DNA from: a virus
IMG/VR virus record: IMGVR_UViG_3300046517_001303
Length of the DNA stretch: 64,000 nt
Reading direction: 5' to 3' (one strand)
Both the position numbers and the translations under genes were made by a program. The notes beneath the pieces were generated by a model. It saw only the letters and a list, made by a program, of their open reading frames with translations, searched no databases and had not been told where the DNA came from. Positions 18,410 through 55,935 of the stretch are shown one piece after another; position 1 is the first letter of the stretch; every line of letters begins with the position of its first letter.

Positions 18410-19279
18410 CTACCTCGGTGGGACCGTGCCGGCCGGCCTTGCTGTGAGTGCAAGTCCGGCCGGTTTTTCATGCGCCCTCTCCCGCCCCAGCTTCACGGCC
18501 GCTGCGGACAGGGCTGCGTTGGCGTCGGCGAGGGTGGGGGCATGTTTGGCGGTCATTTGCTCCCCACCGATTTCGACCACCGGTAACTCCAGCAAATCGT
18601 AAAGGTCGATACCGATGAACCAGGGCGACTGTGGCTCGGGTCGTCCTGGCATCCAGTTCCACACGTTGCCGGCATCGCATTCAAGCTGGATCGGCCGCTT
18701 CCCCACGAGTTCCACCCGCGTCAGCGGTGCCGCCCAGAACACGGCCGATGCGATGCCCTCGGTGGTGCCGGTGCCGTGGCAAGCGGGGCACGTCGGCCAC
18801 GGCTCGCCACCTTGCAGGACACAAAAGCAGGTGCCCCCGAACAGCGTCCGCAGGTCACAGCGGATGAGGTCGGGGAAGCCGCGGGCGAAGGCACAGCGGA
18901 ATTCGCCATCCATGACGATGTGGAAGTCTTGTAAATCTCCAAGACATGAGACCGTGTTAACTCCGAACGTTCTGGAAAGCCAAACAGGCCAGTGCCGCTC
19001 CAGCAACGCCCGTTCTCGGCTGCGGAGATCGACCGGGCCAAGAAATGTTGCCCCCCATGCGATTCGTTGTGGCATTTTAATCCGGGCCACGTTCTCGTGG
19101 AATTCACGGTCCAATCTCGCCAACTCCACGCCGACCCTCACGAATTCTGCGAGGTCACACCACTGCTCGCCAACTTCCGGCAGTCGGTCCGCCAGCACGA
19201 GCCGGATGTCATCCCGGTGCGGCTCGTCCAAGATCGCCAGCATCAGGGCGTTGGCGGTGTCATCGGCGAAGTCGGTCAA
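18410..19279 (-). CDS. TIGR02996-like domain protein (Gemmata repeat-companion family)
   Basis: N-terminal ...DDIRLVLADRLPEVGEQWCDLAEF... Confidence 0.55.
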   Translation of the reverse strand: MTDFADDTANALMLAILDEPHRDDIRLVLADRLPEVGEQWCDLAEFVRVGVELARLDREFHENVARIKMPQRIAWGATFLGPVDLRSRERALLERHWPVWLSRTFGVNTVSCLGDLQDFHIVMDGEFRCAFARGFPDLIRCDLRTLFGGTCFCVLQGGEPWPTCPACHGTGTTEGIASAVFWAAPLTRVELVGKRPIQLECDAGNVWNWMPGRPEPQSPWFIGIDLYDLLELPVVEIGGEQMTAKHAPTLADANAALSAAAVKLGRERAHEKPAGLALTARPAGTVPPR

Positions 19280-19896
19280 GTCGTCGCAGCCTCCGTCTCG
19301 GGTTCGCCGCAGATGTCCCGTAACGACGCCTCTTTCAGCTTGAGTCTGCCGAGTTGGCCCACAGCCGCTTCAAACGAACCAGGCGGGATGAATTTCCCCG
19401 TAGGCTTAGCAGGCACATGCAGCATCTCGGCTATCTCGCCCCGTACCCGCCGCAACTCGTCGGCCGCGGATTGCACCGCAAGGTATGCCTTGCAGAAAGC
19501 GTTTTCGGCGGCTTGGCGGGTGGGGAACTCTACACAATCGCCAACGTCTGGCCTTCCCCCCATCGCTCTCCAAAGATTGCGGGGCAGGCAGTTGGCCGAT
19601 GCTTTCCCGATAACGCTCCATTCATCATCCTTTGTGTCGTCGTCATTCCAACGGTTCCACCACCACGGTTTTGGGTCTTCCCAACTTCGTTTCGTGAACG
19701 TCGGCCGCTTCCGGTTCGACGCGAGCCATCGCAGGCCCGGTGCCCGCGGGTCGCCGGTATCCTCGCACCATTCTGCGAACAGGTCGCGGGTAACGTGATC
19801 GTCGGGATTTTTGTCAAGCATCGCCACGAAGGCAGTCTCGTCGGTCATGACGTGGCCTCCGTGGGGCCGGGTGGGAGCGGCAACGGGCCGTACCAC
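19276..19896 (-). CDS. TIGR02996-like domain protein
   Basis: MTDETAFVAMLDKNPDDHVTRDLFAEWCEDTGDPRAPGLRWL...; C-terminal ...FPTRQAAENAFCKAYL module. Confidence 0.55.
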   Translation of the reverse strand: MVRPVAAPTRPHGGHVMTDETAFVAMLDKNPDDHVTRDLFAEWCEDTGDPRAPGLRWLASNRKRPTFTKRSWEDPKPWWWNRWNDDDTKDDEWSVIGKASANCLPRNLWRAMGGRPDVGDCVEFPTRQAAENAFCKAYLAVQSAADELRRVRGEIAEMLHVPAKPTGKFIPPGSFEAAVGQLGRLKLKEASLRDICGEPETEAATT

Positions 19897-20405
19897 TCGC
19901 CGCCGGCATCTTCAGGAGCAAGAATGCCGTCGCTATGCAGAGCCATTTCGGGGATGCGAACGGCCAAGCCGCCACCGGGCCAGTTGGCGACTTGGACGAT
20001 CCGAGTGTTAAGCCGTTCGCGTTTCCACCAGTACCACGCCGGCACCGTGGGAGCGGCCGTCGTCCACGCCGGGGCAAGAGCCGGGGCCGCGAGGGCGGCG
20101 TCGATCTTGGCGAGTAGTTTGGCGTGCCTGTTATCGTCCCCGTATTCGCACGATGCGGCCACGTTGACGTATCCTTTGCACTCTTCCAGTAGTTTCCGCA
20201 GGTCCGGGGATGACGGGGCCACTGCCTTCATCGCCAGTAGTTCCGGGTTCTTGCGGTTGATGTCGTCAAGGCACAGACGGCAGAGAAGCAGGCCACCGTT
20301 CGTAGTTCGGACGCGGACATATTCGATTGTCCCGGTGTGGTCGATGGTGCCACACGCTTCACACTTCGGTTCGGTCATCGTCACTCCTCTGTTGGGGCCG
20401 GTCAT
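19845..20405 (-). CDS. hypothetical zinc-ribbon protein
   Basis: CEACGTIDHTGT...CRLC near N-terminus; likely start MTEPKCEAC at ~20378. Confidence 0.4.
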   Translation of the reverse strand: MTGPNRGVTMTEPKCEACGTIDHTGTIEYVRVRTTNGGLLLCRLCLDDINRKNPELLAMKAVAPSSPDLRKLLEECKGYVNVAASCEYGDDNRHAKLLAKIDAALAAPALAPAWTTAAPTVPAWYWWKRERLNTRIVQVANWPGGGLAVRIPEMALHSDGILAPEDAGGEWYGPLPLPPGPTEATS

Positions 20406-20476
20406 ATCAATGTACTGTCTTGATATCCATATTCAAGTCTACGTCCATAAAAATCGACAAAATCTTCTCGCCGATC

Positions 20477-20505
20477 TTGACAATCACCATCGACCTTGAT
20501 ATGGT
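20477..20505 (+). promoter_or_regulatory. sigma70-like promoter TTGACA-N17-TATGGT
   Basis: in AT-richer divergent intergenic region 20406-20537. Confidence 0.35.
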
Positions 20506-20537
20506 ATGGGGGACGAGACACACTGGAGAACACAAAC

Positions 20538-20780
20538 ATGACATCCATTAAATTGTCGCCTGAAGATTTCGTCCGACTGTGGCAGGAAGCGGCGACGCTG
20601 AACGAGGTCTGCAAGAAGGGGAAGATCAATAAGGGGGCGGCGAGGCAGCGAGCGGTCATGTATCGGCGCAAGGGTGTCCCGCTGAAGATGTTCGCGAGAT
20701 GCGGCGGCAATGGCCGGCTCCCGAACGACTGGAAGGGTCTGGCAAGACTCGCCAAGTCGGTCGCAGTCGTGGTAGAATGA
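20538..20780 (+). CDS. hypothetical protein (80 aa)
   Basis: internal start MTSIKLSPEDF of track ORF 20496-20780; RBS GGAGaacacaaacATG. Confidence 0.4.
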   Translation: MTSIKLSPEDFVRLWQEAATLNEVCKKGKINKGAARQRAVMYRRKGVPLKMFARCGGNGRLPNDWKGLARLAKSVAVVVE

Positions 20781-20814
20781 GAGAAGGATTTCTCACATTC
20801 TACCCGGAGCCGGA

Positions 20815-21070
20815 GATGGGCCTGATCTTGAGCCGGAAGAGGGGCGAGCGGATTTTCATCGGCGACGGGGTCGTCATCACGGTCGCCGAGGTCGCCTACG
20901 GCCGGGTCCGGCTGGAGATCGAGTGCGACCGCAACGTCAAGATCGTTCGCGAAGAGACGACGTCGCCAGCGACGCGCGAGGAGTTCGAGCGGAAGATTTT
21001 CTTCTGGAAGAAGGATAGCTATGCCCTTCGTGCCGCTGACGCCGGAAGAAGCGAGGAGAGCGTGCCTTAG
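20815..21070 (+). CDS. csrA: CsrA/RsmA-like RNA-binding protein
   Basis: MGLILSRKRGERIFIGDGVVITVAEVAYGRVRLEIECDRNVKIVREE matches the CsrA fold (MLILTRK.GE...IGD.I.I.V...G..VR.GI.AP..V.I.REE); C-terminal extension. Confidence 0.6.
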
Positions 21071-21227
21071 CAAGCAGCACAGCCCGCCCGGCCACATCGT
21101 CATCACGAAGGCGACGAAGTGGCGGTGCCCAGATTGCGGCCACGAGGTCGTGATCTATCCGTCCCAGCCTTCACACAGCTCGGACGGCGGACTGGACTGG
21201 ATAGGCGTGGATGGCGAGATCGGTTGA
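21021..21227 (+). CDS. zinc-ribbon protein (68 aa)
   Basis: WRCPDCGHE. Confidence 0.3.
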   Translation: MPFVPLTPEEARRACLSKQHSPPGHIVITKATKWRCPDCGHEVVIYPSQPSHSSDGGLDWIGVDGEIG

Positions 21228-21242
21228 CCCAGGAGTGCAAAG

Positions 21243-21790: not shown

Positions 21791-21798
21791 CCTTGACG

Positions 21799-23070: not shown

Positions 23071-23204
23071 TCGACTTGTGCATACGATGGGGAACACCGA
23101 TTGTCTGGCAGGTTGCGTGGGACACATTACAATATCCCCCGACCTGGATCACCGCACTGTGGGAAGTTCAGACCTTGCTCACAGAACTTCAAAGGACGTG
23201 ACGA

Positions 23205-24851: not shown

Positions 24852-24856
24852 CGTGG

Positions 24857-24927
24857 CGGTGGCTGGTGAAAAGGTATCACGTCCGTCCGATGAACGGACA
24901 TTACAGGTTCGATTCCTGTGCCACCGA
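24857..24927 (+). tRNA. tRNA-like gene (cloverleaf with anticodon GAU = Ile, atypical anticodon loop CCGATGA lacking U33)
   Basis: acceptor CGGTGGC/GCCACCG, D-arm GTGA-AAAGGTA-TCAC, anticodon stem TCCGT/ACGGA, T-arm ACAGG-TTCGATT-CCTGT. Confidence 0.45.
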
Positions 24928-24929
24928 AT

Positions 24930-27348: not shown

Positions 27349-27670
27349 CATCATGGACTTGCTGGCCGACATCGCCATCAGCATGAACGACCCGACGCCG
27401 CCGCGCGACGATCTGAGCGTCTCGCCCGGCGAATCGACCTTCGATGCCTACAGCAATTTCGACCACGAGATGCAGCCGGGAGCCGAAGACCGTCTCAAGG
27501 CTGGCGAGATCGGTGCGCACTCGGCGTACAATTTCTACGGCCGGCTGTGGCACAAGGACGGCCTGTATCACGAAGAAGTCTGGCAACGACGTTGCCCGCT
27601 CGAAGTCATAATCCGCCCAAGCCTCGCCGAGCTAATCAGCGACGTCAACGACAAGTACGGACACGAATAA
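27320..27670 (+). CDS. hypothetical protein (116 aa)
   Basis: ORF. Confidence 0.35.
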   Translation: MCSEKRMKHDIMDLLADIAISMNDPTPPRDDLSVSPGESTFDAYSNFDHEMQPGAEDRLKAGEIGAHSAYNFYGRLWHKDGLYHEEVWQRRCPLEVIIRPSLAELISDVNDKYGHE

Positions 27671-28020
27671 TGACCGACGAAGACGCATTCCAGCTGGCAC
27701 TCGACGCCGACCCGTCCAATCACGCCACGCGGCTGGTCTTCGCAGACTGGCTTGAGGAACAAGGCGATTGGCGCGCCGAAGGATACAGATGGATGGGCGC
27801 GAATGAGAAATGGCCGTGCCCGCCAGAACGAAGCAAAAGTAATGGCTGGTACTCCGAAAATCGCTGGCATTTTTGGGACCAGCCTTTTTACAAAACAGAA
27901 GACTATATTCTGTGCCACTGCGATGGAATAGCGAAAGGCAAATGGGAGCAGTGGGAATTCGATACGCGCCGCGAATGCGAAGAAGCAATCTGCCGAGCCG
28001 TTGCGCTCGTGACCGTATAA
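27670..28020 (+). CDS. TIGR02996-like domain protein (116 aa)
   Basis: MTDEDAFQLALDADPSNHATRLVFADWLEEQGDWRAEGYRWMGANEK ... C-terminal WEFDTRRECEEAICRAVAL. Confidence 0.6.
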   Translation: MTDEDAFQLALDADPSNHATRLVFADWLEEQGDWRAEGYRWMGANEKWPCPPERSKSNGWYSENRWHFWDQPFYKTEDYILCHCDGIAKGKWEQWEFDTRRECEEAICRAVALVTV

Positions 28021-28066: not shown

Positions 28067-30208
28067 ATGTCTGAAGAAATCACCGGCTGCGTCGTCAAAC
28101 TTTTCTTCCAAGGCCCGGCGTTCTGCGCCGGCCGACTGCTGCCGTCTGGCGGCTCGACCGAAATCGCCTTCTCCGGCAAAATCTACGTCTGCGAAGATCA
28201 GATCGTCACGTTCCGAGGCGAGTGGGTCATCCACACTAAGTACGGCCGTCAGTTTGAGGTGAAGTCGATTGTCAGCCATCGGGAGATCGACGCCAATGGG
28301 CTGGTGTCGTGGCTGGAGCGTCGCGGGCGCGGCCACGGGATCGGGTTCGTGAAGGCCAAGAAGATCGTCGCCGAGTTCTATCCGACGTTCAAAGACACGC
28401 TTTTGAATCAGCCGGAGCTGATCGCCAATTTTGCTGGCGTCCCGGTCAAGGGCGTCCAGGAGATCGCGTCGTACTATGGCGACCACGAAGACGAAATCCG
28501 GTCCTACGCCGATCTGGCGGCGCTGGGCCTGACCGACTTCCTCTGCAACACGCTCTGGGCGAAGTACAAGGGTGCGTCGCTGGCCTTGATTCGCGACAAC
28601 CCGTACCGGTTGGCGGACGAGGTCAACGGGATCGGGTTCGCCAAGGCCGACGAGATTGCGAAGAACGTTGGGATCGCCGGCACTCACCCGGCCCGGATTC
28701 GGGCGGCGGTCCTGCACGCAATCCAGATGAACCAGGACAACGGCTCGACCTGCATCGACCTGGACAAACTGGTCGAGATGGCCGCGAAACTTCTGGGGTC
28801 GGACGAGAACGTGGCGACCGGGGTGGCGACGTATGTGGCGGACGGCGACATCGCCCAGATCGGCGACAGGTACGCGATTCCGTCCACCGCCATGTGCGAG
28901 CGTAACATCGCCGACTTCCTGGCCCGCATGAACACACCGCGGACGTGGGTAAAGGATATCGAGGCGGGGATCGCAAAACACGGCGACTTCCTGGACGACG
29001 ATCAGAAGGCCGCAGTGCGGCTGGCCCTTACCCGCGGCGTTTGCATCATCACTGGCCCGGCCGGGTCCGGCAAGACGACCGTGGTCAACACCATCGTCAA
29101 GATTCTGAACGATGTCTACATCCACGCCTCCCTCTGTGCGCCAACGGGGAAGGCCGCGCGACGGATGGAAGAGATCATTGGCCAGAATGCGTTCACGATC
29201 CACCGCCTGCTCGCTTACCAGCCGCCGAACGTCTGGAACCATAACCGCGACAACCCGCTCCCCGACGACGTCATTATTTGCGACGAAGTCAGTATGAACG
29301 ATAGCTTCCTGTCGTGGAACCTGATGCAGTCGGTGCGGCCGAGCGCGGCCATGATCCTGGTGGGCGATCACAACCAGCTGCCGCCGGTCGGACCGGGCGC
29401 GTTCTTGCGTGACGCCATTCAGCATAAGCTGGTGCCGGTGGCCGATCTGCACCAGGTCCACCGGAACGCCGGCGCTCTGCGACAGAATAGTGCGGCCGTG
29501 CTGGACGGCAAACTGGCCCCGACCGCACCGCGGCTGCCGAACGGCAAGCCGGAGTGGGTGGTCCTGGACAACCATGTGAGCGAGTCCACGCTGTTGCCCA
29601 TGCTCGACAACCTGTTCCTGGACGCGATCCCGGCCCTGGGTTACGACCCGGTCCTGGACGTGCAGTTCATGTCGCCCCGGCGCAAGGGCGTGTCGCTCTG
29701 CTCGGAGATGTTGAGCGAGCGGTTCCAGGTTCTCCACCAGAAGCGGCTGGGCCGCAGCATCGCGCCGACGCCGCCGAAGCGGCGGGCGATCCTGTACGAA
29801 GGCGACAAGGTGATCCAGACCAAGAACAACTACAACCTGGACGTGATGAACGGGACGCTGGGGATCGTGGTGGAGGCGGGCGACAAGTTGAAGATCAAGT
29901 TCGACACGATGGACGAGCCGCTGACGATCCCGAACGAATGCAAGGGCGACATCGACCTGGCGTACTGGCTCACCGTCCACAAGATGCAAGGCGCTCAGTG
30001 CCCCGTGGCGGTCGTACTCTGCTGGGGCGCTCACCTGGGCGGCTACGACGCCCCTATGCTCCACCGTAATCTTGTCTATACTGCACTGACCAGGGCCAGA
30101 GAGTGTACGTTCCTCGTCGGTGACAGCAAAGGTGTAAAGGTCGCGCTGTCGCGCAAGGTCGAGAACCAGCGGCTCACGCTGCTGCCGGTGTTTGCGAGGA
30201 AAAAATGA
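28067..30208 (+). CDS. RecD2/TraA-like SF1 DNA helicase with N-terminal helix-hairpin-helix modules
   Basis: Walker A ITGPAGSGKTT, motif Ia CAPTGKAARRM, Walker B VIICDEVSMN, HhH repeats GIGFVKAKKIV / GIGFAKADEI, C-terminal SH3-like VIQTKNNYNLDVMNG. Confidence 0.8.
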   Translation: MSEEITGCVVKLFFQGPAFCAGRLLPSGGSTEIAFSGKIYVCEDQIVTFRGEWVIHTKYGRQFEVKSIVSHREIDANGLVSWLERRGRGHGIGFVKAKKIVAEFYPTFKDTLLNQPELIANFAGVPVKGVQEIASYYGDHEDEIRSYADLAALGLTDFLCNTLWAKYKGASLALIRDNPYRLADEVNGIGFAKADEIAKNVGIAGTHPARIRAAVLHAIQMNQDNGSTCIDLDKLVEMAAKLLGSDENVATGVATYVADGDIAQIGDRYAIPSTAMCERNIADFLARMNTPRTWVKDIEAGIAKHGDFLDDDQKAAVRLALTRGVCIITGPAGSGKTTVVNTIVKILNDVYIHASLCAPTGKAARRMEEIIGQNAFTIHRLLAYQPPNVWNHNRDNPLPDDVIICDEVSMNDSFLSWNLMQSVRPSAAMILVGDHNQLPPVGPGAFLRDAIQHKLVPVADLHQVHRNAGALRQNSAAVLDGKLAPTAPRLPNGKPEWVVLDNHVSESTLLPMLDNLFLDAIPALGYDPVLDVQFMSPRRKGVSLCSEMLSERFQVLHQKRLGRSIAPTPPKRRAILYEGDKVIQTKNNYNLDVMNGTLGIVVEAGDKLKIKFDTMDEPLTIPNECKGDIDLAYWLTVHKMQGAQCPVAVVLCWGAHLGGYDAPMLHRNLVYTALTRARECTFLVGDSKGVKVALSRKVENQRLTLLPVFARKK

Positions 30209-30767: not shown

Positions 30768-30973
30768 AGAAAGTCCTATGCCAGAAGTGCGGCCAATACG
30801 CCGTAGAGATCGACGTTGAAGAGCCGGAGGGGCCGTACATGTTCATCCAGTTCGGCCGTGACCTTACCGACTACGAGTTCGGTCAGGCGAAAGACATCGC
30901 GAGCCAGTTTTCGGACTTGGTCCAAGGGACGACGATCATCTGTAGTCGGCAAAATTTCGCGCGAACCTCTTGA
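30764..30973 (+). CDS. zinc-ribbon protein (69 aa)
   Basis: MKKVLCQKCGQYA; ATGA overlap. Confidence 0.4.
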   Translation: MKKVLCQKCGQYAVEIDVEEPEGPYMFIQFGRDLTDYEFGQAKDIASQFSDLVQGTTIICSRQNFARTS

Positions 30974-31000
30974 CTTTCGCCGCTGTCCTTGTAGAGTAGA
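30971..31000 (+). promoter_or_regulatory. sigma70-like promoter TTGACT-N16-TAGAGT driving the ncRNA cluster
   Basis: ttgactttcgccgctgtccttgtagagt immediately after the last CDS. Confidence 0.4.
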
Positions 31001-31905: not shown

Positions 31906-31924
31906 CAACACCAAGGAGCCTCTG

Positions 31925-38354: not shown

Positions 38355-38615
38355 ATGAATATGATCGCGACCGTACTAAACGCTGTCCCCGGCAAAGTGG
38401 AGCTGATTCCGATTCCCGACAGCGAACCCGTGCAGTTGGGCGTCGCCGACTTCAGCAAAAAGCACAACACTGACGTCCACGCCGAAGACTTCGTCGAGTA
38501 CGTCTACTTGTGCGACCGGCCAGACGGGCACCACGTTCTCGTGATCGGCGAGGTCGGCATCCGGCTCACGAAAGAGCAGATGGTCGAGTTGGAGCGATTC
38601 TTCAAAGAGACGTAA
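38355..38615 (+). CDS. hypothetical protein (86 aa)
   Basis: ORF. Confidence 0.4.
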   Translation: MNMIATVLNAVPGKVELIPIPDSEPVQLGVADFSKKHNTDVHAEDFVEYVYLCDRPDGHHVLVIGEVGIRLTKEQMVELERFFKET

Positions 38616-39346
38616 TGACCATCCTCACCGATCCGATGTACCAAGCCATGATCCGCTGTGTGATCTCCGCGCCGGACGATGACGGCCCGCGGCTTGTGAT
38701 GGCGGACTGGCTTGAGGAGCAGGGCGACAGCGACCGCGCGGAATTCATTCGTGTCCAGTGCGAGTTGGCGACGATGGGGCCGTCGATTGATATCCCCACA
38801 GACTCAAAACTGCGAAATCACAGAATATTAACCGAACTTCTGAATGATCCCGAGTGCGTCAAAGCTAACTCGCTTCGCGATCTCGAACGGCATCTGTGGG
38901 TACACAATTGCTCGAAGTGGTTTCTCGACCACCCTTTCTGCACGGCACTCGCTCGGCGGGACGCCTGCAATAATCCCTGCCACGGGTTCCCGACGAGAGG
39001 GTTTATCTCGGCCATCGCCTCCTCGTGGGGGCATTGGGCTGTCCACGCCGACCAAATCCTGGCCGCGCAGCCGGTGACGGAAGTCGAGATCGTCGGCCCG
39101 GTGCCGATCCATCTGGTCGCGGGTGGTCGGTTCAGGCGGCTCGGCGGGCCGCGGACGTGGCGAATTAGGAACGAGACGGCGGATTTTAACTACGGCGAGA
39201 CGGCTTACGCGATTGTGGACACGCTCCTGCGGAAAGAGTGGCCGTCGGTGAAAAAGTGGCGTGGTGGACCGGATACGTTTGCGACGGAAGAGGATGAAGG
39301 GGTCATGCCCAGGTTCGCCTCGTCCACGCTGCCGATAGAGGAATAA
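38615..39346 (+). CDS. TIGR02996-like domain protein (243 aa)
   Basis: ...DDDGPRLVMADWLEEQGDSDRAEFIRVQCELA... Confidence 0.55.
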   Translation: MTILTDPMYQAMIRCVISAPDDDGPRLVMADWLEEQGDSDRAEFIRVQCELATMGPSIDIPTDSKLRNHRILTELLNDPECVKANSLRDLERHLWVHNCSKWFLDHPFCTALARRDACNNPCHGFPTRGFISAIASSWGHWAVHADQILAAQPVTEVEIVGPVPIHLVAGGRFRRLGGPRTWRIRNETADFNYGETAYAIVDTLLRKEWPSVKKWRGGPDTFATEEDEGVMPRFASSTLPIEE

Positions 39347-48490: not shown

Positions 48491-48901
48491 CTAATCGTCT
48501 TTGATCTTCAGCATCGCGCGGCACAGCGCCTCTTCGGCTTCCCTTCTGGTGCGGAACGTGAAGAACCAATGGTCGCACTTCAATCCCATCTTCCGAATAA
48601 TCTTCGAGCTGATCCCGTGGTTTCGCTTTGCCAGCGGAAACTTAGACCCGTGTCGATAGCTCCACTTTTGGGGCTTTCCGCCGTTAGCCCATTGCCACTT
48701 ATCCAGACGAAACTCGTCTGACATCCACGGCGTCCCTCAGCCGCGCCACAGCTCAGGCCGTTTCCCATTCGCGCCCATCCACCGATATCCCTTGGCTCGC
48801 CAGTCTCCTTGTTCCTCAAGCCAATCGGCGAACACTAACCTCGGCCCATCGTCATACGGCCTGGCGTCAATCGCTCGTTGAAATGCTTCTTCGTCCGTCA
48901 T
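48491..48901 (-). pseudogene. TIGR02996-like gene interrupted by an in-frame TGA (at ~48737-48739)
   Basis: upstream half MTDEEAFQRAIDARPYDDGPRLVFADWLEEQGDWRAKGYRWMGANGKRPELWRG-stop, continuing in frame ...MSDEFRLDKWQW...FTFRTRREAEEALCRAMLKIKDD (track ORF 48491-48724). Confidence 0.45.
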
Positions 48902-48905: not shown

Positions 48906-48920
48906 CTTGACCGGTCAAGC
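48906..48920. repeat. junction palindrome CTTGACCGGTCAAGC (copy 1)
   Basis: 4 nt 5' of pseudogene start codon; its TTGACC is the -35 of a rightward promoter. Confidence 0.6.
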
Positions 48921-48935
48921 CGGCCCCTCTATGAT
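48907..48935 (+). promoter_or_regulatory. sigma70-like promoter TTGACC-N17-TATGAT whose -35 is one half of a junction-palindrome copy
   Basis: ttgaccggtcaagccggcccctctatgat. Confidence 0.4.
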
Positions 48936-48964
48936 TTCAATACCACCCTTACCTGGAGACCACC

Positions 48965-49141
48965 ATGCCAGCGAAGAAGAAAGTCAAAGAGAACCGGCGC
49001 ACCCTCGCGGCCCAGCTGCTCGGCCATTTTGGCGGGCTTCACGGCGGGCCAGCTCGCGCCGAAAAGTTGTCCAAAGAACGTAGAGTCGAAATTGCGAAAA
49101 TGGGCAATGCGGCATCAAAGCGTTCACGAGGCGTCGAGTAG
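48965..49141 (+). CDS. small basic protein (58 aa)
   Basis: MPAKKKVKENRRTLAAQLLGHFGG...; RBS GGAGaccaccATG; not in track (<60 aa). Confidence 0.35.
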   Translation: MPAKKKVKENRRTLAAQLLGHFGGLHGGPARAEKLSKERRVEIAKMGNAASKRSRGVE

Positions 49142-49327
49142 CCACTCTGGGCATTCGCCAGTTCGCTCTCGGTGAATCTTCGCGGCCGTATGAACGGTCA
49201 TCTCTTTCCCGTCCACGGGGTCCATGATCCTGGGGTCGCCGAACACTTTCTTGTCCGGCTCGGTGGCTTCGCGCCAACCGCGCTCGACCAGCCACAGGTA
49301 CGTTTTCCAGCCCCACCTGGTCGCCAT
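49124..49327 (-). CDS. hypothetical protein (about 67 aa, internal start MATRWGW)
   Basis: ATGA overlap with upstream gene. Confidence 0.35.
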   Translation of the reverse strand: MATRWGWKTYLWLVERGWREATEPDKKVFGDPRIMDPVDGKEMTVHTAAKIHRERTGECPEWLLDAS

Positions 49328-49662
49328 CACTTCGCCCCTCGCTTGCCGAATTCCAAACAGAACGCATCTTCGGCTTCTCGGCGGGTGTCGAAATGCCAAA
49401 AGCTAGTCCCCGGAAATATTCCGAGATGCTTGATGGCGGAAGGGCGTGAGACACAATTGGTAGAATCTTTATCATCGCATCCGCCGTGCCATGAGTACGC
49501 GACGAAGCTATCATCGGGTCGCATTTGGTGCGACCCCAGCCATCGCATCCCAGCCGCCCTCGCGTCGTCCTGCTCTTCGAGCCAGTCCGCAAACACCAAT
49601 CTCGTGTCGTGGCTGTCAATATTGGCGTCAAGCGCCTTCTGAAAAGCATCCTCGTCCACCAT
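49327..49662 (-). CDS. TIGR02996-like domain protein (111 aa)
   Basis: MVDEDAFQKALDANIDSHDTRLVFADWLEEQDDARAAGMRW ... WHFDTRREAEDAFCLEF; upstream part of track ORF is GC-frame noise. Confidence 0.55.
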   Translation of the reverse strand: MVDEDAFQKALDANIDSHDTRLVFADWLEEQDDARAAGMRWLGSHQMRPDDSFVAYSWHGGCDDKDSTNCVSRPSAIKHLGIFPGTSFWHFDTRREAEDAFCLEFGKRGAK

Positions 49663-50006
49663 CACTTCGTCCCCGTGATCTGAAACACCCGTTGCCGACT
49701 GACCCCGATCTTCTCGCTGATCTCGGCACCGGTCATTCCCTTTTCCCGCATCTCCACCAGTTTTGCCGCCCGCTTCTCGGCCTCGTCCTTCTTCGCCATT
49801 GCGGCCGGCGACTCCCACGCGCCCCTGATCCGCACGCCCCGCATCTCCAGCCACCGCTTCATCGTCTCGCGCGCGCACTCGTACTCTTCAGCCAGGCCCT
49901 TCGCGCTGACCTCGCCGTTCTCATACCGCTCCAAATCCTTCTCGGTTATTTTCATCGCATTTCGGAGCGCCGCCTCGCGCTTCCGCTTCGGTTTCCCGCG
50001 CACCAT
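49662..50006 (-). CDS. DNA-binding protein with two HTH modules (114 aa)
   Basis: GLAEEYECARETMKRWLEMRG and GMTGAEISEKIGVSRQRVFQI. Confidence 0.45.
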   Translation of the reverse strand: MVRGKPKRKREAALRNAMKITEKDLERYENGEVSAKGLAEEYECARETMKRWLEMRGVRIRGAWESPAAMAKKDEAEKRAAKLVEMREKGMTGAEISEKIGVSRQRVFQITGTK

Positions 50007-50137
50007 TCTTGCCCTCTTTCATCAGTTGCCAACACCTTCGACACGTTTGTTCAAGCGTTTTCGCACTGAATCTCTTCCTCGTCTCGCCCGTCACTCGGTC
50101 GATTGGCTCGGCGATGCCCAGGCAGGTACAGAGAACG

Positions 50138-50323
50138 TCACCCAAGTTCCTTGACGAACGCTTCGGCGGCGTCTTTCGACGCAAAGGGCGGCATACCAAT
50201 CGGCTGGTTTCGCCACACGCCGTCGGTTCCAGTGAAGGCCGCGCCGTGGCTTCCTCGCTCGCCGCTGTAGTCGGCGACGATGAACCCATTTCCATACTGC
50301 TCGATTGCATATCTGTCGTCCAT
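50138..50323 (-). CDS. hypothetical protein (about 61 aa)
   Basis: internal start MDDRYAIEQY of track ORF 50138-50374. Confidence 0.35.
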   Translation of the reverse strand: MDDRYAIEQYGNGFIVADYSGERGSHGAAFTGTDGVWRNQPIGMPPFASKDAAEAFVKELG

Positions 50324-50655
50324 TATTCCTCCCGTTCGACGCCGCAGTGGATCGGGCACTCGTGGTTCCGGCACCCTTTAAAGTCGCCGTTGATCTTCTT
50401 GGCTTCCAGGCTCGCCGCCAGCGCCGTCTCATCGCTGACCATGTTCAGCTCGTGAAAGCCCACCAAACTGTAGCCGATCAGCTGCATGAACTGCTCCCAA
50501 TCGTCCTGGGAGAAGTCCATCTGCGTCAAGTCGTTCAAGTTGATCTTGTCCCGCAGATAAAGGACAATGGCGTTGGCCTTGAACCGGACAACGCCGTCGT
50601 CGTCCACCACCATCGGTTGCATCGGGTTTCTCATTTCAATCCCCCTAAACACCAC
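50323..50655 (-). CDS. hypothetical protein (about 105 aa)
   Basis: ORF; ends CRNHECPIHC. Confidence 0.4.
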   Translation of the reverse strand: MVFRGIEMRNPMQPMVVDDDGVVRFKANAIVLYLRDKINLNDLTQMDFSQDDWEQFMQLIGYSLVGFHELNMVSDETALAASLEAKKINGDFKGCRNHECPIHCGVEREE

Positions 50656-51011
50656 TCGTAGTCCTTCAGCATGGCCACGGCGACAGGCTTCACGGTGTAG
50701 CGATAGACGTACTTTTTCTTCCCGCCGGTTCGCCCGCCGCCCATCGCCATCAGCAGGCCCTTCTCGCTCAGGCTCTCCAGCAAGGCCCTGGCCACCGGCA
50801 GCGAGTCGCTGTCGAACATGACGCCGCTCATTCGCTTCTCGTCCGCGATCACGACCTTCAGCCCGTTCCGCTCCTCCGCCGTCAGGTCGGCAATCGGCGT
50901 CGGCTTGATCCGCTTCGGCGCTTTGACATTCAAAAGCCCGTCGTGCCGTTCCGGCTGGCCGCTCTTCACGGCCGTACTCGGCCGCACGCTCCAGGCGATC
51001 TTTTCGTCCAT
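50631..51011 (-). CDS. hypothetical protein, probable winged-helix (126 aa)
   Basis: DSLPVARALLESLSEKGLL. Confidence 0.4.
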   Translation of the reverse strand: MDEKIAWSVRPSTAVKSGQPERHDGLLNVKAPKRIKPTPIADLTAEERNGLKVVIADEKRMSGVMFDSDSLPVARALLESLSEKGLLMAMGGGRTGGKKKYVYRYTVKPVAVAMLKDYEWCLGGLK

Positions 51012-51012
51012 G

Positions 51013-51363
51013 TCACTCCTTGAACTGGTCGTCGCAGAGGTCGTCAGGGACTTCGATGCCCTTCTCTTCCATGATCTTCACCAAGCCGTCCCGCCACATC
51101 TTGCGCACGTCGCTCTCACAGTGGCTCATGGCGTCCGTCCAGGTCGGCCATCGCCCGTGTATCGCATTAAACTTCATCTGATAAGGGAGCGAGTCCCTGT
51201 TGTGCGGCTGGTCCCTCTCGTGTTCCGTGTGGCACCACTCGCACGAACCTGGCGGGCCTGGCAGCATTCTCATGCCGCCGCCCTCAATCGGAGTCTCTTC
51301 GCCGGTCTCCATGTCTACAGAGACGGCGTCACCGACCTTGAACAACTTACTGTTCTTGCTCAT
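51013..51363 (-). CDS. hypothetical protein (116 aa)
   Basis: ORF. Confidence 0.45.
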   Translation of the reverse strand: MSKNSKLFKVGDAVSVDMETGEETPIEGGGMRMLPGPPGSCEWCHTEHERDQPHNRDSLPYQMKFNAIHGRWPTWTDAMSHCESDVRKMWRDGLVKIMEEKGIEVPDDLCDDQFKE

Positions 51364-51562
51364 CCTTTTTCCTCGGATCGGGGTAATACTCTTTACCCAT
51401 GATCGCCAGCGTGTAACGCCATTCGGCTTCGTCGTGGCACGCCTTGCCGCAGCAGCCGATCTCGCGGCCGTACTTCTTCATCCAGTCGAACTCGGCCTTG
51501 CACACGGGGCAGAATAGTTTGCATTGGGAAAACATAAACTGCCCCATGTGCCGTGCGGCCAT
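51347..51562 (-). CDS. zinc-finger protein (71 aa)
   Basis: CKLFCPVCKAE ... CCGKACHDE. Confidence 0.4.
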   Translation of the reverse strand: MAARHMGQFMFSQCKLFCPVCKAEFDWMKKYGREIGCCGKACHDEAEWRYTLAIMGKEYYPDPRKKDEQEQ

Positions 51563-51572
51563 CGCTGCCGCC

Positions 51573-51974
51573 TCACGCCAGAACCACCTTGCCGTTCCGC
51601 AGGACGGCCGACTTCCGGCCGATCATGTTCTTGATCTCGGAGTAGATGACGGTGTCCGGCTGCTTGCTGCTCGTCTGGAACAGGCCCCGGCTCGCGGCGA
51701 CGATCTCGCTCCGCGTCAGGCCCAGCGACCGCCCGGTCAGGATGCCGACGACGGCGGCGTGCGCGCCTTTGTACTTCTTGTGCGAGCCGTTGGGGATCAT
51801 GATCGGATGCGAGACGACCTCTCGCTTCTCCGTCGGCTTCACCTCCGGCACGCTCGCCAGAATCTCGCGCCGCACGCTGGCCGGCACGTCGTCCAGGGCG
51901 TCGCGGAACGCATTGTAGGCGTCCCTCAACTTCTCCAGCTTCATCATCTTGCTGTCGATCTGAACCAAATCCAT
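51573..51974 (-). CDS. hypothetical protein (about 133 aa)
   Basis: internal start MDLVQIDSK with RBS GAGGAGacagtgATG. Confidence 0.4.
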   Translation of the reverse strand: MDLVQIDSKMMKLEKLRDAYNAFRDALDDVPASVRREILASVPEVKPTEKREVVSHPIMIPNGSHKKYKGAHAAVVGILTGRSLGLTRSEIVAASRGLFQTSSKQPDTVIYSEIKNMIGRKSAVLRNGKVVLA

Positions 51975-52003
51975 CACTGTCTCCTCGGGTTTAGAAACAA
52001 CCG

Positions 52004-52222
52004 TCATCCTCTCGGATCGACGGAAAACTCGCCATCTTCTCCGTAAACATCCTTGTAAGCGGTCGCACCGAGCCGCATGACTTGTCCAGTCATGTCCCTC
52101 ACCAAGTTTCGCGCCTCGACCATCGCGTCCCACATGGTCTTATCGCGACCGGCGGCTTCCTGGGCCGCTTTATCCAGAGCCTCTTCGGCTTCGACCAGAC
52201 ACCGTATCACTTTCGCGTGCAT
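52004..52222 (-). CDS. hypothetical protein (72 aa)
   Basis: RBS GGAGGAactATG; own promoter TTGACA-N16-TAGAGT upstream. Confidence 0.45.
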   Translation of the reverse strand: MHAKVIRCLVEAEEALDKAAQEAAGRDKTMWDAMVEARNLVRDMTGQVMRLGATAYKDVYGEDGEFSVDPRG

Positions 52223-52283
52223 AGTTCCTCCTACTCTACGAACTCGAAGCCATTTGTCAAGGGGGCGTTCCGCTTTTCCCGTC

Positions 52284-52298
52284 CTTGAACGGTCAAGC
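52284..52298. repeat. junction palindrome CTTGAACGGTCAAGC (copy 2)
   Basis: overlaps stop (TAG) of gene 52298-52705 by 1 nt. Confidence 0.6.
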
Positions 52299-52705
52299 TA
52301 CTCGTCGGCGAAGAACTCCTCCTTGATCTTTTTGGCCGTGCAGTAGTGGTGCCAGTCCTGCACCACGCCGTCCGCTCCGATGTTGAACTCGATGTAGTCG
52401 CCGTACTCTCCTGGGATGCAGCTGGGGACGTAGTCCTGCTCGATCCTCTTGACCTCGATCTCGTCGTAGTCGAGCAGGTAGTAGCGACCCTGATCGACCA
52501 CTTTCATGTAGCACTGCGCCGCCGGATGGCCTTTAGAGACCCAGCCCTGAATCTCTCCGCTGTCGATGTTCACGGTCACGTCCCAGACGTCGCCGACCCT
52601 GAACGGGAAGTCGTTCGGGATATCCTCTTCGCCGTACCGCACCGGCACGACCACGCGGATGGCCGACACGTCAATCTCGACAGGCTTGTTCACAGTCAGT
52701 CGCAT
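52298..52705 (-). CDS. hypothetical protein (about 135 aa)
   Basis: internal start MRLTVNKPVEI with RBS GGAGGTaatATG. Confidence 0.45.
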   Translation of the reverse strand: MRLTVNKPVEIDVSAIRVVVPVRYGEEDIPNDFPFRVGDVWDVTVNIDSGEIQGWVSKGHPAAQCYMKVVDQGRYYLLDYDEIEVKRIEQDYVPSCIPGEYGDYIEFNIGADGVVQDWHHYCTAKKIKEEFFADE

Positions 52706-52706
52706 A

Positions 52707-53081
52707 TTACCTCCGCTTTGGGACGACGAAATGCCTCCCGTTGAATACTTTCTTGGTCTCGCCAGACCTATATTTTCGCGTCTTGTAGTCGTATCCGACG
52801 AACTTGTAAAACTCCCAGATGCTCGCAAACGTTCTCAGCCTCTCCCAATCGACATCCTTGAAGAGCCTCTTGCGGAATTCGATCTCGTCTTCCATATGCG
52901 CCGTGAACTGCCGAACCTCGGTCACGTTCGCGTGCGGGTTTCGCATGGACTGGAAGAAGGCGCTGAACGACATCACGGCGCGGTAGAAGCCGTCTTCCCT
53001 TACACCCGGCAGCATGAGGTAGTAGAAGTTCTGTCGGCGTTTACCAAAGAACGTCTCGATGATGAGCATCTTACTGGCCAT
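52707..53081 (-). CDS. hypothetical protein (about 124 aa)
   Basis: internal start MASKMLIIETFF; ATGA overlap. Confidence 0.4.
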   Translation of the reverse strand: MASKMLIIETFFGKRRQNFYYLMLPGVREDGFYRAVMSFSAFFQSMRNPHANVTEVRQFTAHMEDEIEFRKRLFKDVDWERLRTFASIWEFYKFVGYDYKTRKYRSGETKKVFNGRHFVVPKRR

Positions 53082-53410
53082 CACATCTCCACTACTTCCA
53101 CTCGGTCCAGTCCCGCCAACGTTTCTCTCGCGATCTCCCTGGCCTTCTTGTATCTGTTCCCGACCTTTTCCGTGAAGCCAACCAGGACTATGTCCGACAG
53201 GGCCGTTCGTGCCGCCTGCCACTCGTTCATGGCTACTACGACCATCTCCAACCCAGCCTTGTCTGGCCCCGTCAAAAACGGCCGGCCCTCCTTGTCCTTC
53301 ACGACCCAGACGGCCCACCCAAACCCTTCCTGGTTTTTATCCTCCAGCTCAATCGTGAGCGGCAGCACGGGAATCACTTGTCCACCTCGATCTTGACCAT
53401 GTGAATCCAC
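53081..53410 (-). CDS. hypothetical protein (99-109 aa)
   Basis: ORF; alternative GTGA-overlap start at ~53378. Confidence 0.4.
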   Translation of the reverse strand: MDSHGQDRGGQVIPVLPLTIELEDKNQEGFGWAVWVVKDKEGRPFLTGPDKAGLEMVVVAMNEWQAARTALSDIVLVGFTEKVGNRYKKAREIARETLAGLDRVEVVEM

Positions 53411-53757
53411 TTCTTGCCGGACAGCTTTTTCTCCATTGTCTCTAAGTCGCTCGTCGGACAGTCGAGCTTCACGAACTCGCCCTTCTCTCCGTACTGAGTC
53501 TCCATGACCGGGAACAGCAAGTCGGTCGCCCGAATGCCTTCGTCGCGGCTCTTGTCGCTGGCGTCCTTAGCGGCGTACTGATACCAACTCTTCCGGTCCT
53601 TGCCGTCGAACGGGTCCGCGCTCTCGGCGCTGTAGTACCGGAACCGGTACTTTATCGTCCACTTCCCATCATCCACCACCAGCCGCGCCATCCAGTCGCC
53701 GGTCTTGCCGTCGCCGACGAACCAGATGCCGTAGATGTAGGTCTCGTTCTTGTCCAC
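53374..53757 (-). CDS. hypothetical protein (about 127 aa)
   Basis: track start 53781 is a TTG inside the junction palindrome; likelier GTG ~53757 after RBS GGGAGGTGG. Confidence 0.4.
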   Translation of the reverse strand: MDKNETYIYGIWFVGDGKTGDWMARLVVDDGKWTIKYRFRYYSAESADPFDGKDRKSWYQYAAKDASDKSRDEGIRATDLLFPVMETQYGEKGEFVKLDCPTSDLETMEKKLSGKKWIHMVKIEVDK

Positions 53758-53768
53758 CCGCCACCTCC

Positions 53769-53783
53769 CTTGATCGGTCAAGC
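53769..53783. repeat. junction palindrome CTTGATCGGTCAAGC (copy 3)
   Basis: between stop of 53783-54067 and RBS of next gene. Confidence 0.6.
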
Positions 53784-54067
53784 TACCACCGCACCGGCGG
53801 TGGGAACTTTCGGTTCTCTTCCTTCACCTTCTCACCGACGCGCTGGGCCTCTTGGTCTCTGGCGTAGCCTTCCGGCGTAAAGACGTATTCCATGCTCTCG
53901 GCGTAGTGCGTGGTCACGTCCGGGGCTTGTTTGCTCCACTTGATCCAGACAGTGTTGTAACGTTTGTTGACCACTTCCCCGTCGTCGTCGTGCTGGCTCT
54001 CGCCGGGCTTGCGAAAGATCACTTTGTCGCCCTTTTTGAGCCGCTTCGCTTGGCTTTTCAACATCAC
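53783..54067 (-). CDS. hypothetical protein (94 aa)
   Basis: ORF. Confidence 0.45.
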   Translation of the reverse strand: MMLKSQAKRLKKGDKVIFRKPGESQHDDDGEVVNKRYNTVWIKWSKQAPDVTTHYAESMEYVFTPEGYARDQEAQRVGEKVKEENRKFPPPVRW

Positions 54068-54231
54068 TTCCTCCCCCCGATCAGCTTCACCTTCGGAACC
54101 TCAGCCAATCCTGCGCTCGCCCGCAGCCGTTCGTTGATGGCCTTCAGGTTCGCCGCCAGTTCGGCCGTCTGCTTGCGCACCTCTTCGGCCTCTTTGTTCT
54201 CGTCGCCGATCAGCCAGCTCAGAAACTTCAT
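54062..54231 (-). CDS. small coiled-coil protein (55 aa)
   Basis: MKFLSWLIGDENKEAEEVRKQTAELAANLKAINERL...; RBS AGGAGcgtcATG; ATGA overlap; not in track. Confidence 0.3.
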
Positions 54232-54518
54232 GACGCTCCTTGGGTTAGGGTCAGGACGGCCACGCCTTCCACGATCTTCATCCGTCCGCCGAACTCTTCC
54301 CGATTCACATGCGCGACCTCGTCGCGATTAGCGGTGAACACGGGGCCGGAGTAGTATTGCTTACTCCCGTCCACGCAGGCGACGTTGCCGTTCTCGTCCA
54401 CCAGGATGAACACCTTGTACTGCGCGAACGTCGGCGCGGGCTTTGGCGTGAACGCCTGCACGGGCTTTTTTTGCAGGAACAACCACTTTATCTTGCGCTC
54501 CCTTGATCGGTCAAGCAT
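54228..54518 (-). CDS. hypothetical protein (about 96 aa)
   Basis: start ATG immediately 5' of junction palindrome (TAATG overlap with upstream stop); upstream part of track ORF is GC-frame noise. Confidence 0.4.
   Translation of the reverse strand: MLDRSRERKIKWLFLQKKPVQAFTPKPAPTFAQYKVFILVDENGNVACVDGSKQYYSGPVFTANRDEVAHVNREEFGGRMKIVEGVAVLTLTQGAS
54502..54516. repeat. junction palindrome CTTGATCGGTCAAGC (copy 4)
   Basis: 1 nt from stop of 54518-54985; here it encodes codons 2-5 of next gene. Confidence 0.6.
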
Positions 54519-54985
54519 TACCAGCTTGCCCTGTAGTAGAAGTCCCAATTCTCGAACCGCGGATCGTCCAGCACGGCCCGCAACTGCTTCACTGTGCTGC
54601 GCAGGTCCGCGAAGTAGTAGTCGTCCACCTCCGTCGATCCGAAAAAGAACCCGCTTTTCGGCGGCAGCAGATCGTCGGCCCTCTTGCTGTCCGCCAAGAC
54701 CCAATTGCAGATTTTCACCAGCTCTTCCAGCTGCTCGCGCCCGACCTCGCTCAGCTGGCATTCATCCTTGCCGCCCTGCACGTTCTTCACGAACCACCCG
54801 TGGATCGCGTTGGCCTTGCGCCAGTAGGCGACGTTGACACTCACCTCCATACTCGGTGAGCCATCACAGCGGAAGCCTTCCAGCCCGACGGCCGCGGCCA
54901 CCTTGGCGAACACGTCACGCTCCACGCCAGAATGCTTCCAGTCGCCGACGTACTTCTCGGCTTTCAGGTACATGTCCAAACCCAT
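54518..54985 (-). CDS. hypothetical protein (155 aa)
   Basis: ORF. Confidence 0.45.
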   Translation of the reverse strand: MGLDMYLKAEKYVGDWKHSGVERDVFAKVAAAVGLEGFRCDGSPSMEVSVNVAYWRKANAIHGWFVKNVQGGKDECQLSEVGREQLEELVKICNWVLADSKRADDLLPPKSGFFFGSTEVDDYYFADLRSTVKQLRAVLDDPRFENWDFYYRASW

Positions 54986-55012
54986 TTCAGAATCTCCTGT
55001 TTCAGATAATGC

Positions 55013-55027
55013 CTTGATCGGTCAAGC
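55013..55027. repeat. junction palindrome CTTGATCGGTCAAGC (copy 5)
   Basis: stop codon TGA of 55022-55312 lies inside it. Confidence 0.6.
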
Positions 55028-55312
55028 ATCACTCTTCGGGCCGGTCCGCATTGCGTCCCTCAAAACCCGTGTGCCGTATTTCGCCTCGAACACCTCAGTC
55101 TTGTTGTTGTTCCAGTCGCCCACCACATGCAGCATCTCGGCCTTTACCTCCTTGGCCTGTTCCCGCGCCTCGTCCCGCTCTTCCCTCAGTCTCGCCATCG
55201 CCGCGAGAATATCGTTGACCCTCTTGTCGATGATCTCCTTATGGCCCGGCGTCGCCCGCCGATCCCTCAGACAGATGCTCACCAGGCCGTTCACCAGTTG
55301 CGTGTCGTTCAC
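55022..55312 (-). CDS. hypothetical protein (96 aa)
   Basis: ORF. Confidence 0.45.
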   Translation of the reverse strand: MNDTQLVNGLVSICLRDRRATPGHKEIIDKRVNDILAAMARLREERDEAREQAKEVKAEMLHVVGDWNNNKTEVFEAKYGTRVLRDAMRTGPKSDA

Positions 55313-55548
55313 GGTTTATCCTCAATCGGGGTCGGTTCTTTTCCGTAATAGGCGATCATCTCCGGAAGACCGTCAAACACTGGCACTCGCGCAGGGATGT
55401 CCACGATCCTCTGGCGGCAGAACTCCAACAGGTCGCACAGGTGCCCGGCCGCGTCATCCCATCTTTCGCGGCTGTAAAGGCATTCGGATAGTGCGAACAC
55501 CTTTTCTTCAAGAGACAGGATGGGTATGCCTTTGTCGCTGAACTTCAT
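55309..55548 (-). CDS. hypothetical protein (79 aa)
   Basis: ATGA overlap. Confidence 0.4.
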   Translation of the reverse strand: MKFSDKGIPILSLEEKVFALSECLYSRERWDDAAGHLCDLLEFCRQRIVDIPARVPVFDGLPEMIAYYGKEPTPIEDKP

Positions 55549-55563
55549 CGCCGTGGCCCTCCC

Positions 55564-55578
55564 CTTGATCGGTCAAGC
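55564..55578. repeat. junction palindrome CTTGATCGGTCAAGC (copy 6)
   Basis: stop TGA of 55573-55935 inside it. Confidence 0.6.
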
Positions 55579-55935
55579 CCTGAGTGCGGCTCCGACGTCC
55601 GGCATCCCTTGCTCTTCGCACCAGTCGGCCAGCACTAGCCGCACGCCTCGCTCGTTTGGGTGTTCCGCGAACATCGCCCGGAAGTTCTCCGGGATAGCCG
55701 CCTCCAACCGCTCCACCATCGCCTGCGCCTTGGCTCGGTACTGGCCGTACTCGCTCTTCGGGCCGTTGTACCTGCTGTCCAGGTTGCTCCACTCGGCCAG
55801 CACGGCGGGGTCGTCCTTGCGATACATGCTCTTCACTGGCCCTGCGACGACCAACAGCCGCACGGGCCGACGATATTTGCCGCCTCCCGACTTGGGCGCG
55901 GCACAGGTCCGAATCACTATCTGGAACAGGCTCAC
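55573..55935 (-). CDS. protein with C-terminal TIGR02996-like motif (120 aa)
   Basis: ...ERGVRLVLADWCEEQGMPDVGAALRA at C-terminus; GTG start after RBS GGAGGTG. Confidence 0.45.
   Translation of the reverse strand: MSLFQIVIRTCAAPKSGGGKYRRPVRLLVVAGPVKSMYRKDDPAVLAEWSNLDSRYNGPKSEYGQYRAKAQAMVERLEAAIPENFRAMFAEHPNERGVRLVLADWCEEQGMPDVGAALRA

Follow-up and report, generated by a model that had tools for sequence, protein, structure and literature searches.

Seven TIGR02996 loci in a tailed phage, and the recurrence of their short two-module form in portal-fused and toxin-bearing giant phage proteins

The viral DNA analyzed here (64,000 nucleotides of IMG/VR record IMGVR_UViG_3300046517_001303; “the window” throughout) carries the TIGR02996 protein domain at seven loci. 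Five of these are intact genes, one is a pseudogene, and the seventh is a fragment fused to an unrelated, conserved small protein. A short, two-module form of this family, encoded in the window by free-standing genes, also occurs as a unit of giant phage proteins that contain portal, ADP-ribosyltransferase (ART) or Zeta-toxin domains. To find short-form units in such fusions is new to this work. Because related phages build the short unit into portal- and toxin-fused virion proteins, a host-directed role is suggested for the family, and we judge the chances to be about even that the TIGR02996 proteins of the window bind host proteins.

At the sequence level, family membership was shown with the curated NCBIfam model for TIGR02996. 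The model matches all seven loci (E-values down to 5e-20), and five of them score above its curated whole-protein cut-off of 29.05 bits (Table 1), the pseudogene at 48491 having been scored with its stop codon masked. Of the two loci below the cut-off, 19276 was assigned through its alignment and a profile of its C-terminal module, and 55573 is treated as a fragment. A six-frame scan of the window with a hidden Markov model (HMM) of the seven domains gave seven matches, with E-values from 4e-27 to 2e-18; the next E-value was 1, and the scan revealed no eighth copy. The original prediction had counted eight genes; the seven coordinate pairs that it listed translate as it described, and its assignment of them to TIGR02996 has now been borne out by the HMM search. 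The domain is N-terminal in six of the loci, starting at residues 3-19, and C-terminal in 55573 (residues 84-118). Spurious open reading frames (ORFs) are plentiful in DNA of high G+C content (~60% here), but virtually no probability remains that these ORFs are unrelated and resemble one another through composition or low complexity. That explanation is ruled out by the curated model, by the six-frame scan, and by profiles built from outside homologs only, which recover the same ORFs and no others; further, hundreds of homologs have the same architecture.

Proteins of the short subfamily, as we define it, are about 105-190 amino acids (aa) long; their N-terminal TIGR02996 variant ends in RAEGYR.(L/M)G, and a C-terminal helix carries F.TRREAE.A. 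A search with the 116-aa protein of 27670 returned 171 homologs of 105-190 aa. In a 32-sequence alignment, the N-terminal variant is invariant at F7, R21, F24, A25, W27, D33, R35, A36, G38 and R40, and is followed by a variable, Trp-rich middle and by a C-terminal F.TRREAE(D/E)A...A(F) helix in which R100 is invariant. The short copies match positions 1-36 of the 45 in the TIGR02996 profile, the remainder being RAEGYRW(M/L)G and the distinct C-terminal helix. A profile of this C-module, built from outside homologs only, recovers four ORFs of the window (E-values 1.8e-9 to 7e-5; next best 0.17). The C-terminal W.FDTRREAE.A.C block that had been described is thus real and not compositional. It is found, as had been claimed, in 27670, 49327 and 48491, and also in 19276, which had not been listed; it is missing from 18410, 38615 and 55573, so the notion that every copy has both modules does not hold. 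Judged by these profiles, the C-module is confined to the short form.

The four short copies differ in their state of preservation. Locus 27670 lies directly 5' of a RecD2-like helicase gene, and 49327 is located near the 3' end of a minus-strand block, with a G+C content at third codon positions (GC3) of 0.63 against a genome mean of 0.77. Locus 48491, the last gene of the same block, is a pseudogene, as had been predicted: a single in-frame TGA occupies codon 55 (48737-48739), and the C-module is still detectable 3' of it (E = 2.9e-9). The protein of 19276 consists of the TIGR02996 N-domain, an internal C-module and a tail of ~60 aa; its E-value of 1.1e-23 in the window-derived HMM is circular, since the copy belongs to that model. 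Its start is likely the ATG at 19848, with the GTG at 19896 less likely, because the former yields the N-terminus MTDETAF, has GGAGG upstream and overlaps the stop of the upstream gene by 4 nt.

The top matches in an exhaustive search were giant proteins with several complete short-form units, two to eight in tandem; the curated TIGR02996 model confirmed the unit counts in three of them (P0241, P0242 and P0256; Table 1). The gene for P0241 lies in a phage-like region immediately 3' of the gene for the portal protein P0242, overlapping its stop codon. Protein P0246 is encoded in a phage packaging region, near another Portal_Mu protein that is fused to a 2',5' RNA ligase/2H phosphoesterase domain. 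Each array unit begins with “MT(T/S)E(E/D)DF”, as do the free-standing genes; an internal Met occupies the position of their start, and a recurring ...PTQ(A/S)SRY-type linker precedes many units. These sequence features suggest in-frame concatenation of gene-sized units, and the linkers may be sites of protease processing.

Portal fusions to 2H phosphoesterase have been described, and domains fused to portal or MuF proteins have been interpreted as virion-packaged effectors that are injected with the DNA (Iyer, Burroughs, Anand, de Souza and Aravind, 2017, PMC5512222). The short-form relatives resemble the polyvalent proteins of that study in that they bead giant Portal_Mu, ART and Zeta fusions encoded in packaging or head regions. 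The polyvalent architecture, i.e. several domains in a virion-fused protein, is found in P0241, P0242, P0256 and P0246; the window copies, by contrast, stand alone as single genes, away from the structural module. A non-enzymatic, TPR-like unit (see below) repeated up to eightfold is not among the architectures found in that paper, in which Planctomycetes and Gemmata have no occurrences (PMC5512222).

In its AlphaFold2 (AF2) model (predicted local distance difference test score, pLDDT, of 80), the 27670 protein starts with three helices, which are followed by a small beta element and by a helix at the C-terminus; the model of the 38615 protein has a pLDDT of 76. In structure comparisons with the AF2 model, nearly all of the top matches were tetratricopeptide-repeat (TPR) proteins, including CDC27, Pex5, a consensus TPR and HOP TPR1, and the best superpositions covered 45-50 residues at 1.2-2 Å. 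No Pfam TPR profile matched the window copies at E <= 1. Profile searches of Protein Data Bank sequences gave nothing for the short form and chance-level syntaxin matches only for the long form. The modeling suggests that the acidic, ~45-residue TIGR02996 domain is a three-helix unit of the TPR-like fold class, a resemblance that argues for protein binding over catalysis. The beta element and the conserved C-terminal helix (F.TRREAE.A) of the short form would close the domain into a stand-alone protein of 110-150 aa. In the long form, the domain is predicted to be followed by a long helix and an alpha/beta domain. An F-box-like reading, i.e. a 45-aa N-terminal handle preceding leucine-rich repeats (LRRs), was rejected: there was no F-box profile match, and the structural matches are to TPR proteins. 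The acidity is marked in the six copies with an N-terminal domain, where 10-12 of the first 45 residues are D/E and 3-6 are K/R. A DNA mimic of the Ocr/ArdA type is nonetheless unsupported, since the acidity is limited to the N-domain and the isoelectric points of the whole proteins range from 4.65 to 9.6.

The long subfamily, as defined here, has the full TIGR02996 domain including AEFIRVQCELA, then a helix, a core, a strand and LL..EWP. Features common to its members in the alignment are AEFIRVQCELA, an LRRRERELL helix, an RGF(V/I)..(V/I).C....W..H...I.A.PV..V.LT core and an LL..EWP.I motif. The gene at 38615 lies 5' of a primase-like gene, and its 243-aa product has 624 homologs, many of which span 60-88% of the query. 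The gene at 18410, the final one of a three-gene opposite-strand island, also has full-length homologs, such as P0198 (34% identity over 96% of the query). The “repeat-companion” name of TIGR02996 refers to the C-terminal LRRs that the domain accompanies. Some long-form relatives do extend into LRRs; no LRR or other Pfam repeat was detected in any window copy. With respect to NCBIfam TIGR02996 (rpt_mate_G_obs), the window proteins agree in their scores (five above the cut-off, two just below it), in the N-terminal position of the domain in six of seven and in the taxonomy of their homologs, and differ in their lack of LRRs, in the shorter profile match of the short copies and in their phage setting.

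A HMMER scan of 1.84 billion representative sequences returned 7,817 proteins at E <= 1e-3, 1,346 at E <= 1e-10 and 290 at E <= 1e-30, the last group being counted here as clusters of the short subfamily. Matches in species genomes belong mostly to Gemmataceae, Gemmatales and other Planctomycetota (Limnoglobus, Fimbriiglobus, Gemmata, Isosphaera and Pirellulaceae), with a few in Myxococcota, in agreement with the view of TIGR02996 as a Gemmata-centered family. From this taxonomy, the host of the phage is most likely a planctomycete of the Gemmataceae type. Close homologs are also carried by metagenome-assembled genomes titled “uncultured Alcaligenaceae bacterium” (L033, L034, L051, L059 and others), labels that look doubtful. 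We found 53 domain-bearing ORFs on 24 IMG/VR contigs, whose slices of at most 20 kb held 1-5 copies each. In phage-like contigs, two of them ~65 kb long, the copies lie beside genes for small terminase, portal, RecD2 helicase or D5 primase. When neighboring ORFs were clustered over ~115 loci in search of conserved partners, only a terminase-like neighbor recurred in phage loci, and spurious alternative-frame ORFs swamped the result. Reference collections yielded little: for the window copies, there was no useful match in Pfam and only a marginal one in PHROGs (phrog_18306, E = 0.0096); the family is absent from BFVD; and tblastn searches of 50,697 GenBank phage records, with a short form and a long form as queries, gave no match.

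The window paralogs appear to be ancient. In the first 135 nt of the short copies, nucleotide identity is 0.53-0.74 and third-position identity is 0.31-0.56; synonymous sites are therefore near saturation, yet the first 45 residues remain clearly alignable. Across the family, the positions F, R, FA, W, D, RA, G and R are invariant. Identity among the paralogs does not exceed 45%, and proteins encoded on unrelated contigs are at least as close to them; for instance, 27670 is 58% identical to P0002. The combination of saturated synonymous sites and a conserved N-domain points to copies that are old and constrained. Recent duplication or gene conversion was rejected on the third-codon identities and on this closeness of outside proteins.

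How might such proteins serve the phage? In the host-directed model, the TIGR02996 proteins of the window would bind host proteins as adaptors or decoys, at an early stage of infection and in the cytoplasm of the host. Related phages would deliver the short unit strung in tandem within virion proteins that are portal-fused and carry toxins. The expanded TIGR02996 family of the host lineage, often LRR-fused, has the same N-terminal handle; the phage proteins may mimic or titrate the host’s own TIGR02996 or TIGR02996-LRR proteins. Divergent paralogs would differ in specificity, and the decayed copies would represent birth-and-death turnover. Host-factor binding, early timing, target differences and mimicry are all steps that we infer. 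The phage-host interaction role of the original prediction thus gains indirect support from the short units in portal-fused and toxin-bearing giant proteins. A precedent of sorts is offered by viral host-mimic families (poxvirus ankyrin/PRANC proteins, giant-virus ankyrin, F-box and BTB proteins, and CARD-, PYD- or DED-only decoys), which likewise comprise divergent paralogs of interaction modules expanded in the host, some of them decayed, but which have no relationship to TIGR02996 in sequence or fold. A more specific proposal, which we regard as a long shot, is that TIGR02996 is a homotypic signaling or assembly handle of cytoplasmic LRR sensors in planctomycetes, and that handle-only phage proteins, made early or injected as arrays within portal-fused polyvalent proteins, titrate or mis-assemble this host system.

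Several observations weigh against a host-directed role. The window copies are free-standing proteins (111-289 aa) encoded in early and replication regions, outside the virion module, and injection is not implied for them. The two host neighborhoods inspected, admittedly a shallow sample, are of a housekeeping character and not defense islands: P0006 (GCA_964515185.1, titled “uncultured Alcaligenaceae bacterium”) is coupled to a HemN-like gene, and P0182 sits in a tandem LRR array. The window copies had no PADLOC match at E <= 0.1. Neither result lends support to anti-defense or superinfection exclusion, two of the roles that the original prediction had offered. A literature search found no paper on TIGR02996 or the “repeat-companion domain”. 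The host assignment itself derives only from the taxonomy of homologs. Finally, decay has affected two of the seven copies, and GC3 is low in the short ones, findings that would also fit dispensable cargo.

The copies could indeed be passenger genes (morons), acquired repeatedly from hosts, with little or no lytic role and at most a benefit to the lysogen, such as superinfection exclusion. Several copies occupy the 3' ends of transcription units (18410 and 48491/49327) or form part of the opposite-strand island; GC3 is below average in all four short copies (0.61-0.68 against 0.77 ± 0.07; z from -1.3 to -2.4); one copy is a pseudogene and another a fused fragment; and homologs occur in ordinary chromosomal neighborhoods. 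We nevertheless consider this explanation unlikely, given that old paralogs have kept the N-domain and C-module while synonymous sites approached saturation, that multiple copies recur in many unrelated phage contigs, and that a unit built into portal-fused virion proteins is hard to square with neutral cargo. Further, no integrase or lysogeny module was noticed near the copies, albeit with no systematic search.

The portal fusions also raise the possibility of a structural function, in which TIGR02996, rather than being a host-directed effector, would serve head assembly, DNA packaging or ejection as a scaffold, chaperone or spacer built of helical repeats. Phage Mu encodes MuF directly after its portal gene, and one carrier of the unit occupies that position; in another phage, a free-standing long form is found between a gene adjacent to the small terminase and the portal gene; and scaffolding is a frequent task of TPR-like folds. 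However, none of the seven window loci is in the structural block (~0.2-18.3 kb); they lie near the helicase and primase genes and in the small-gene block. Many homologs are ordinary chromosomal genes, often LRR-fused, and the portal fusions also bear toxin domains typical of injected effectors. A structural role is thus distinctly unlikely. The presence of units and toxin domains in the same polypeptides could instead mean that TIGR02996 supplies immunity, holding ART or Zeta toxin domains inactive until delivery or protecting the infected cell. An immunity family is typically made up of small, divergent, multi-copy binding proteins, as in SUKH with its 21 paralogs in Gemmata (PMC3113570). 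However, no toxin gene adjoins any of the seven loci, there are several units per toxin domain, the arrays of P0246 and P0243 have no recognizable toxin, and the long forms of hosts are fused to LRRs instead of being paired with toxins. Such neutralizing modules are very improbable to our minds.

Table 1. Features of the window and of related giant proteins. Positions are those of the window except for loci L118 and L120. The TIGR02996 column gives the score of the curated model and its place relative to the cut-off.
Feature	Location	Strand	Description	TIGR02996 (bits)	Further evidence
18410	18410..19279	-	Long form, 289 aa, Cys-rich insert (CPACHG)	29.6, above	Outside-only core profile E 1.8e-3, weak
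19276	19276..19848	-	Short-form derivative, 190 aa from ATG	19.7, below	Outside-only C-module E 7.2e-5
27670	27670..28020	+	Short two-module form, 116 aa	39.5, above	C-module E 1.8e-9
38615	38615..39346	+	Long form, 243 aa	71.0, above	Outside-only core profile E 4e-12
48491	48491..48901	-	Pseudogene of short two-module copy	48.6, above
49327	49327..49662	-	Short two-module form, 111 aa	42.1, above	C-module E 1.4e-7
55573	55573..55935	-	120 aa: ~85-aa conserved small protein + TIGR02996 fragment (~55573-55686)	27.9, below
Strand block 1	0.2-18.3 kb	+	Structural
Strand block 2	18.4-20.4 kb	-	3 genes, 2 of them TIGR02996 (island 18410-20378)
Strand block 3	20.5-48.5 kb	+	Replication and other functions
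Strand block 4	48.5-64 kb	-	Small genes
PASTA protein gene	16678-18015	+	445 aa; hydrophobic N-terminus, Pro/Gln-rich linker, PASTA domain		PASTA E 1.4e-8
Third island gene	19845-20378	-	177 aa; N-terminal CxxC...CxxC zinc-ribbon-like motif
tRNA-Ile(GAT)	24857-24927	+
RecD2-like helicase gene	28067-30208
ORF-poor gap	30973-31925		~950 bp, 5' of Ro60 gene
YrlA (Y RNA-like) match	31572-31641		Weak, in Ro60 gap		23.3 bits, E 0.14; gathering score 69
Ro60 homolog gene	31925-33541	+			TROVE E 1.3e-50; Ro60 vWA E 4.2e-57
Primase-like gene	39697-41742
tRNA-Tyr(GTA)	59807-59897	-	Long-arm
Palindrome CTTGACCGGTCAAG	48906..48919		Intercistronic, immediately 5' of pseudogene 48491 ATG
Palindrome	55948..55961		12 nt 5' of 55573 ORF start
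All palindrome sites (low coordinates)	48906, 52284, 53769, 54502, 55013, 55564, 55948, 56603, 56996, 58417, 59135, 59783, 60871, 61364, 62008, 62679, 63410
P0241			1,622 aa; 5 TIGR02996 units		Zeta toxin
P0242			1,658 aa; 3 TIGR02996 units		N-terminal Portal_Mu; C-terminal HExxH motif (read from sequence)
P0256			1,605 aa; 2 TIGR02996 units		Portal_Mu; ADP-ribosyltransferase exotoxin
P0246			3,033 aa; 8 N-domain matches		No other domain recognized
Giant-protein locus L118	5025-14869		Giant proteins largely of TIGR02996 units; GCA_040384245.1, JAWVHA010000523.1
Giant-protein locus L120	10001-19102 and 27734-29102		Giant proteins largely of TIGR02996 units; neighboring gene for Portal_Mu fused to 2',5' RNA ligase/2H domain

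The window is most of a tailed phage of ~65 kb, and nearly the whole element, because a protein identical to that of 27670 (P0001) is encoded on a contig of 65,391 bp. Its small genes are densely packed and fall into four strand blocks. As had been proposed, the TIGR02996 copies are scattered, with an opposite-strand island at 18.4-20.4 kb. The third gene of this island, which is not a TIGR02996 member, had no match in PHROGs or PADLOC for its product and ends in a stop codon that overlaps the 19276 start. Other recognizable genes encode a tape-measure-like protein, an ERF recombinase, a RecD2-like helicase, a primase-like protein, a Ro60 homolog and an AAA ATPase; blastn with the structural region found no match. 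The PASTA protein encoded at the end of the structural block may be cell-wall-binding or lysis-related. Two tRNA genes are present. The Ro60 homolog is preceded by an ORF-poor gap with a weak YrlA match, and a divergent Y-like RNA partner for the phage Ro60 is possible.

The minus-strand block of small genes is also the sole location in the window of a 14-bp palindrome, CTTGACCGNTCAAG, which has 17 sites (48906-63423) against 1.08 expected. It mostly follows directly after, or overlaps, the stop codon of the upstream gene, typically 8-30 nt before the next start, and a GGAGG-like ribosome-binding site is often found just 3' of it. It resembles a cassette-boundary element, which would be either an operator or a short hairpin in the RNA, and brings to mind T4-type PeSL cassette boundaries. 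It frames two TIGR02996 loci. One of these is 55573, whose TGA stop lies inside the copy at 55564-55577. All six homologs (82-99 aa) of the N-terminal ~85 residues of its product lack the TIGR02996 tail, which spans positions 4-38 of the 45 in the profile. The GTG start at 55935 is supported because these homologs match the first ~85 residues, including YQIVIRSCAAPKSGGGKYRRPV. Locus 55573 is thus probably the remnant of a fusion, in which a deletion would have joined the 5' end of a former TIGR02996 gene to the gene upstream.

Hardly any work has been devoted to the phages of planctomycetes, and TIGR02996, at 7,817 representative clusters, is a large family. Phages retain several divergent copies, the short form has a defined two-module build, and the same unit dominates portal-fused, toxin-bearing giants; a role in phage-host conflict is therefore likely. 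The 110-aa proteins with confident models, and the tandem arrays with their conserved linkers, are suitable reagents with which to seek binding partners. Should the partner prove to be the TIGR02996-LRR proteins of the host, a new host system would be exposed. If, further, the domain is a homotypic handle, its phage forms would be a bacterial counterpart of the viral CARD-, PYD- or DED-only decoys, and they would reveal a new immune pathway in the Planctomycetes.

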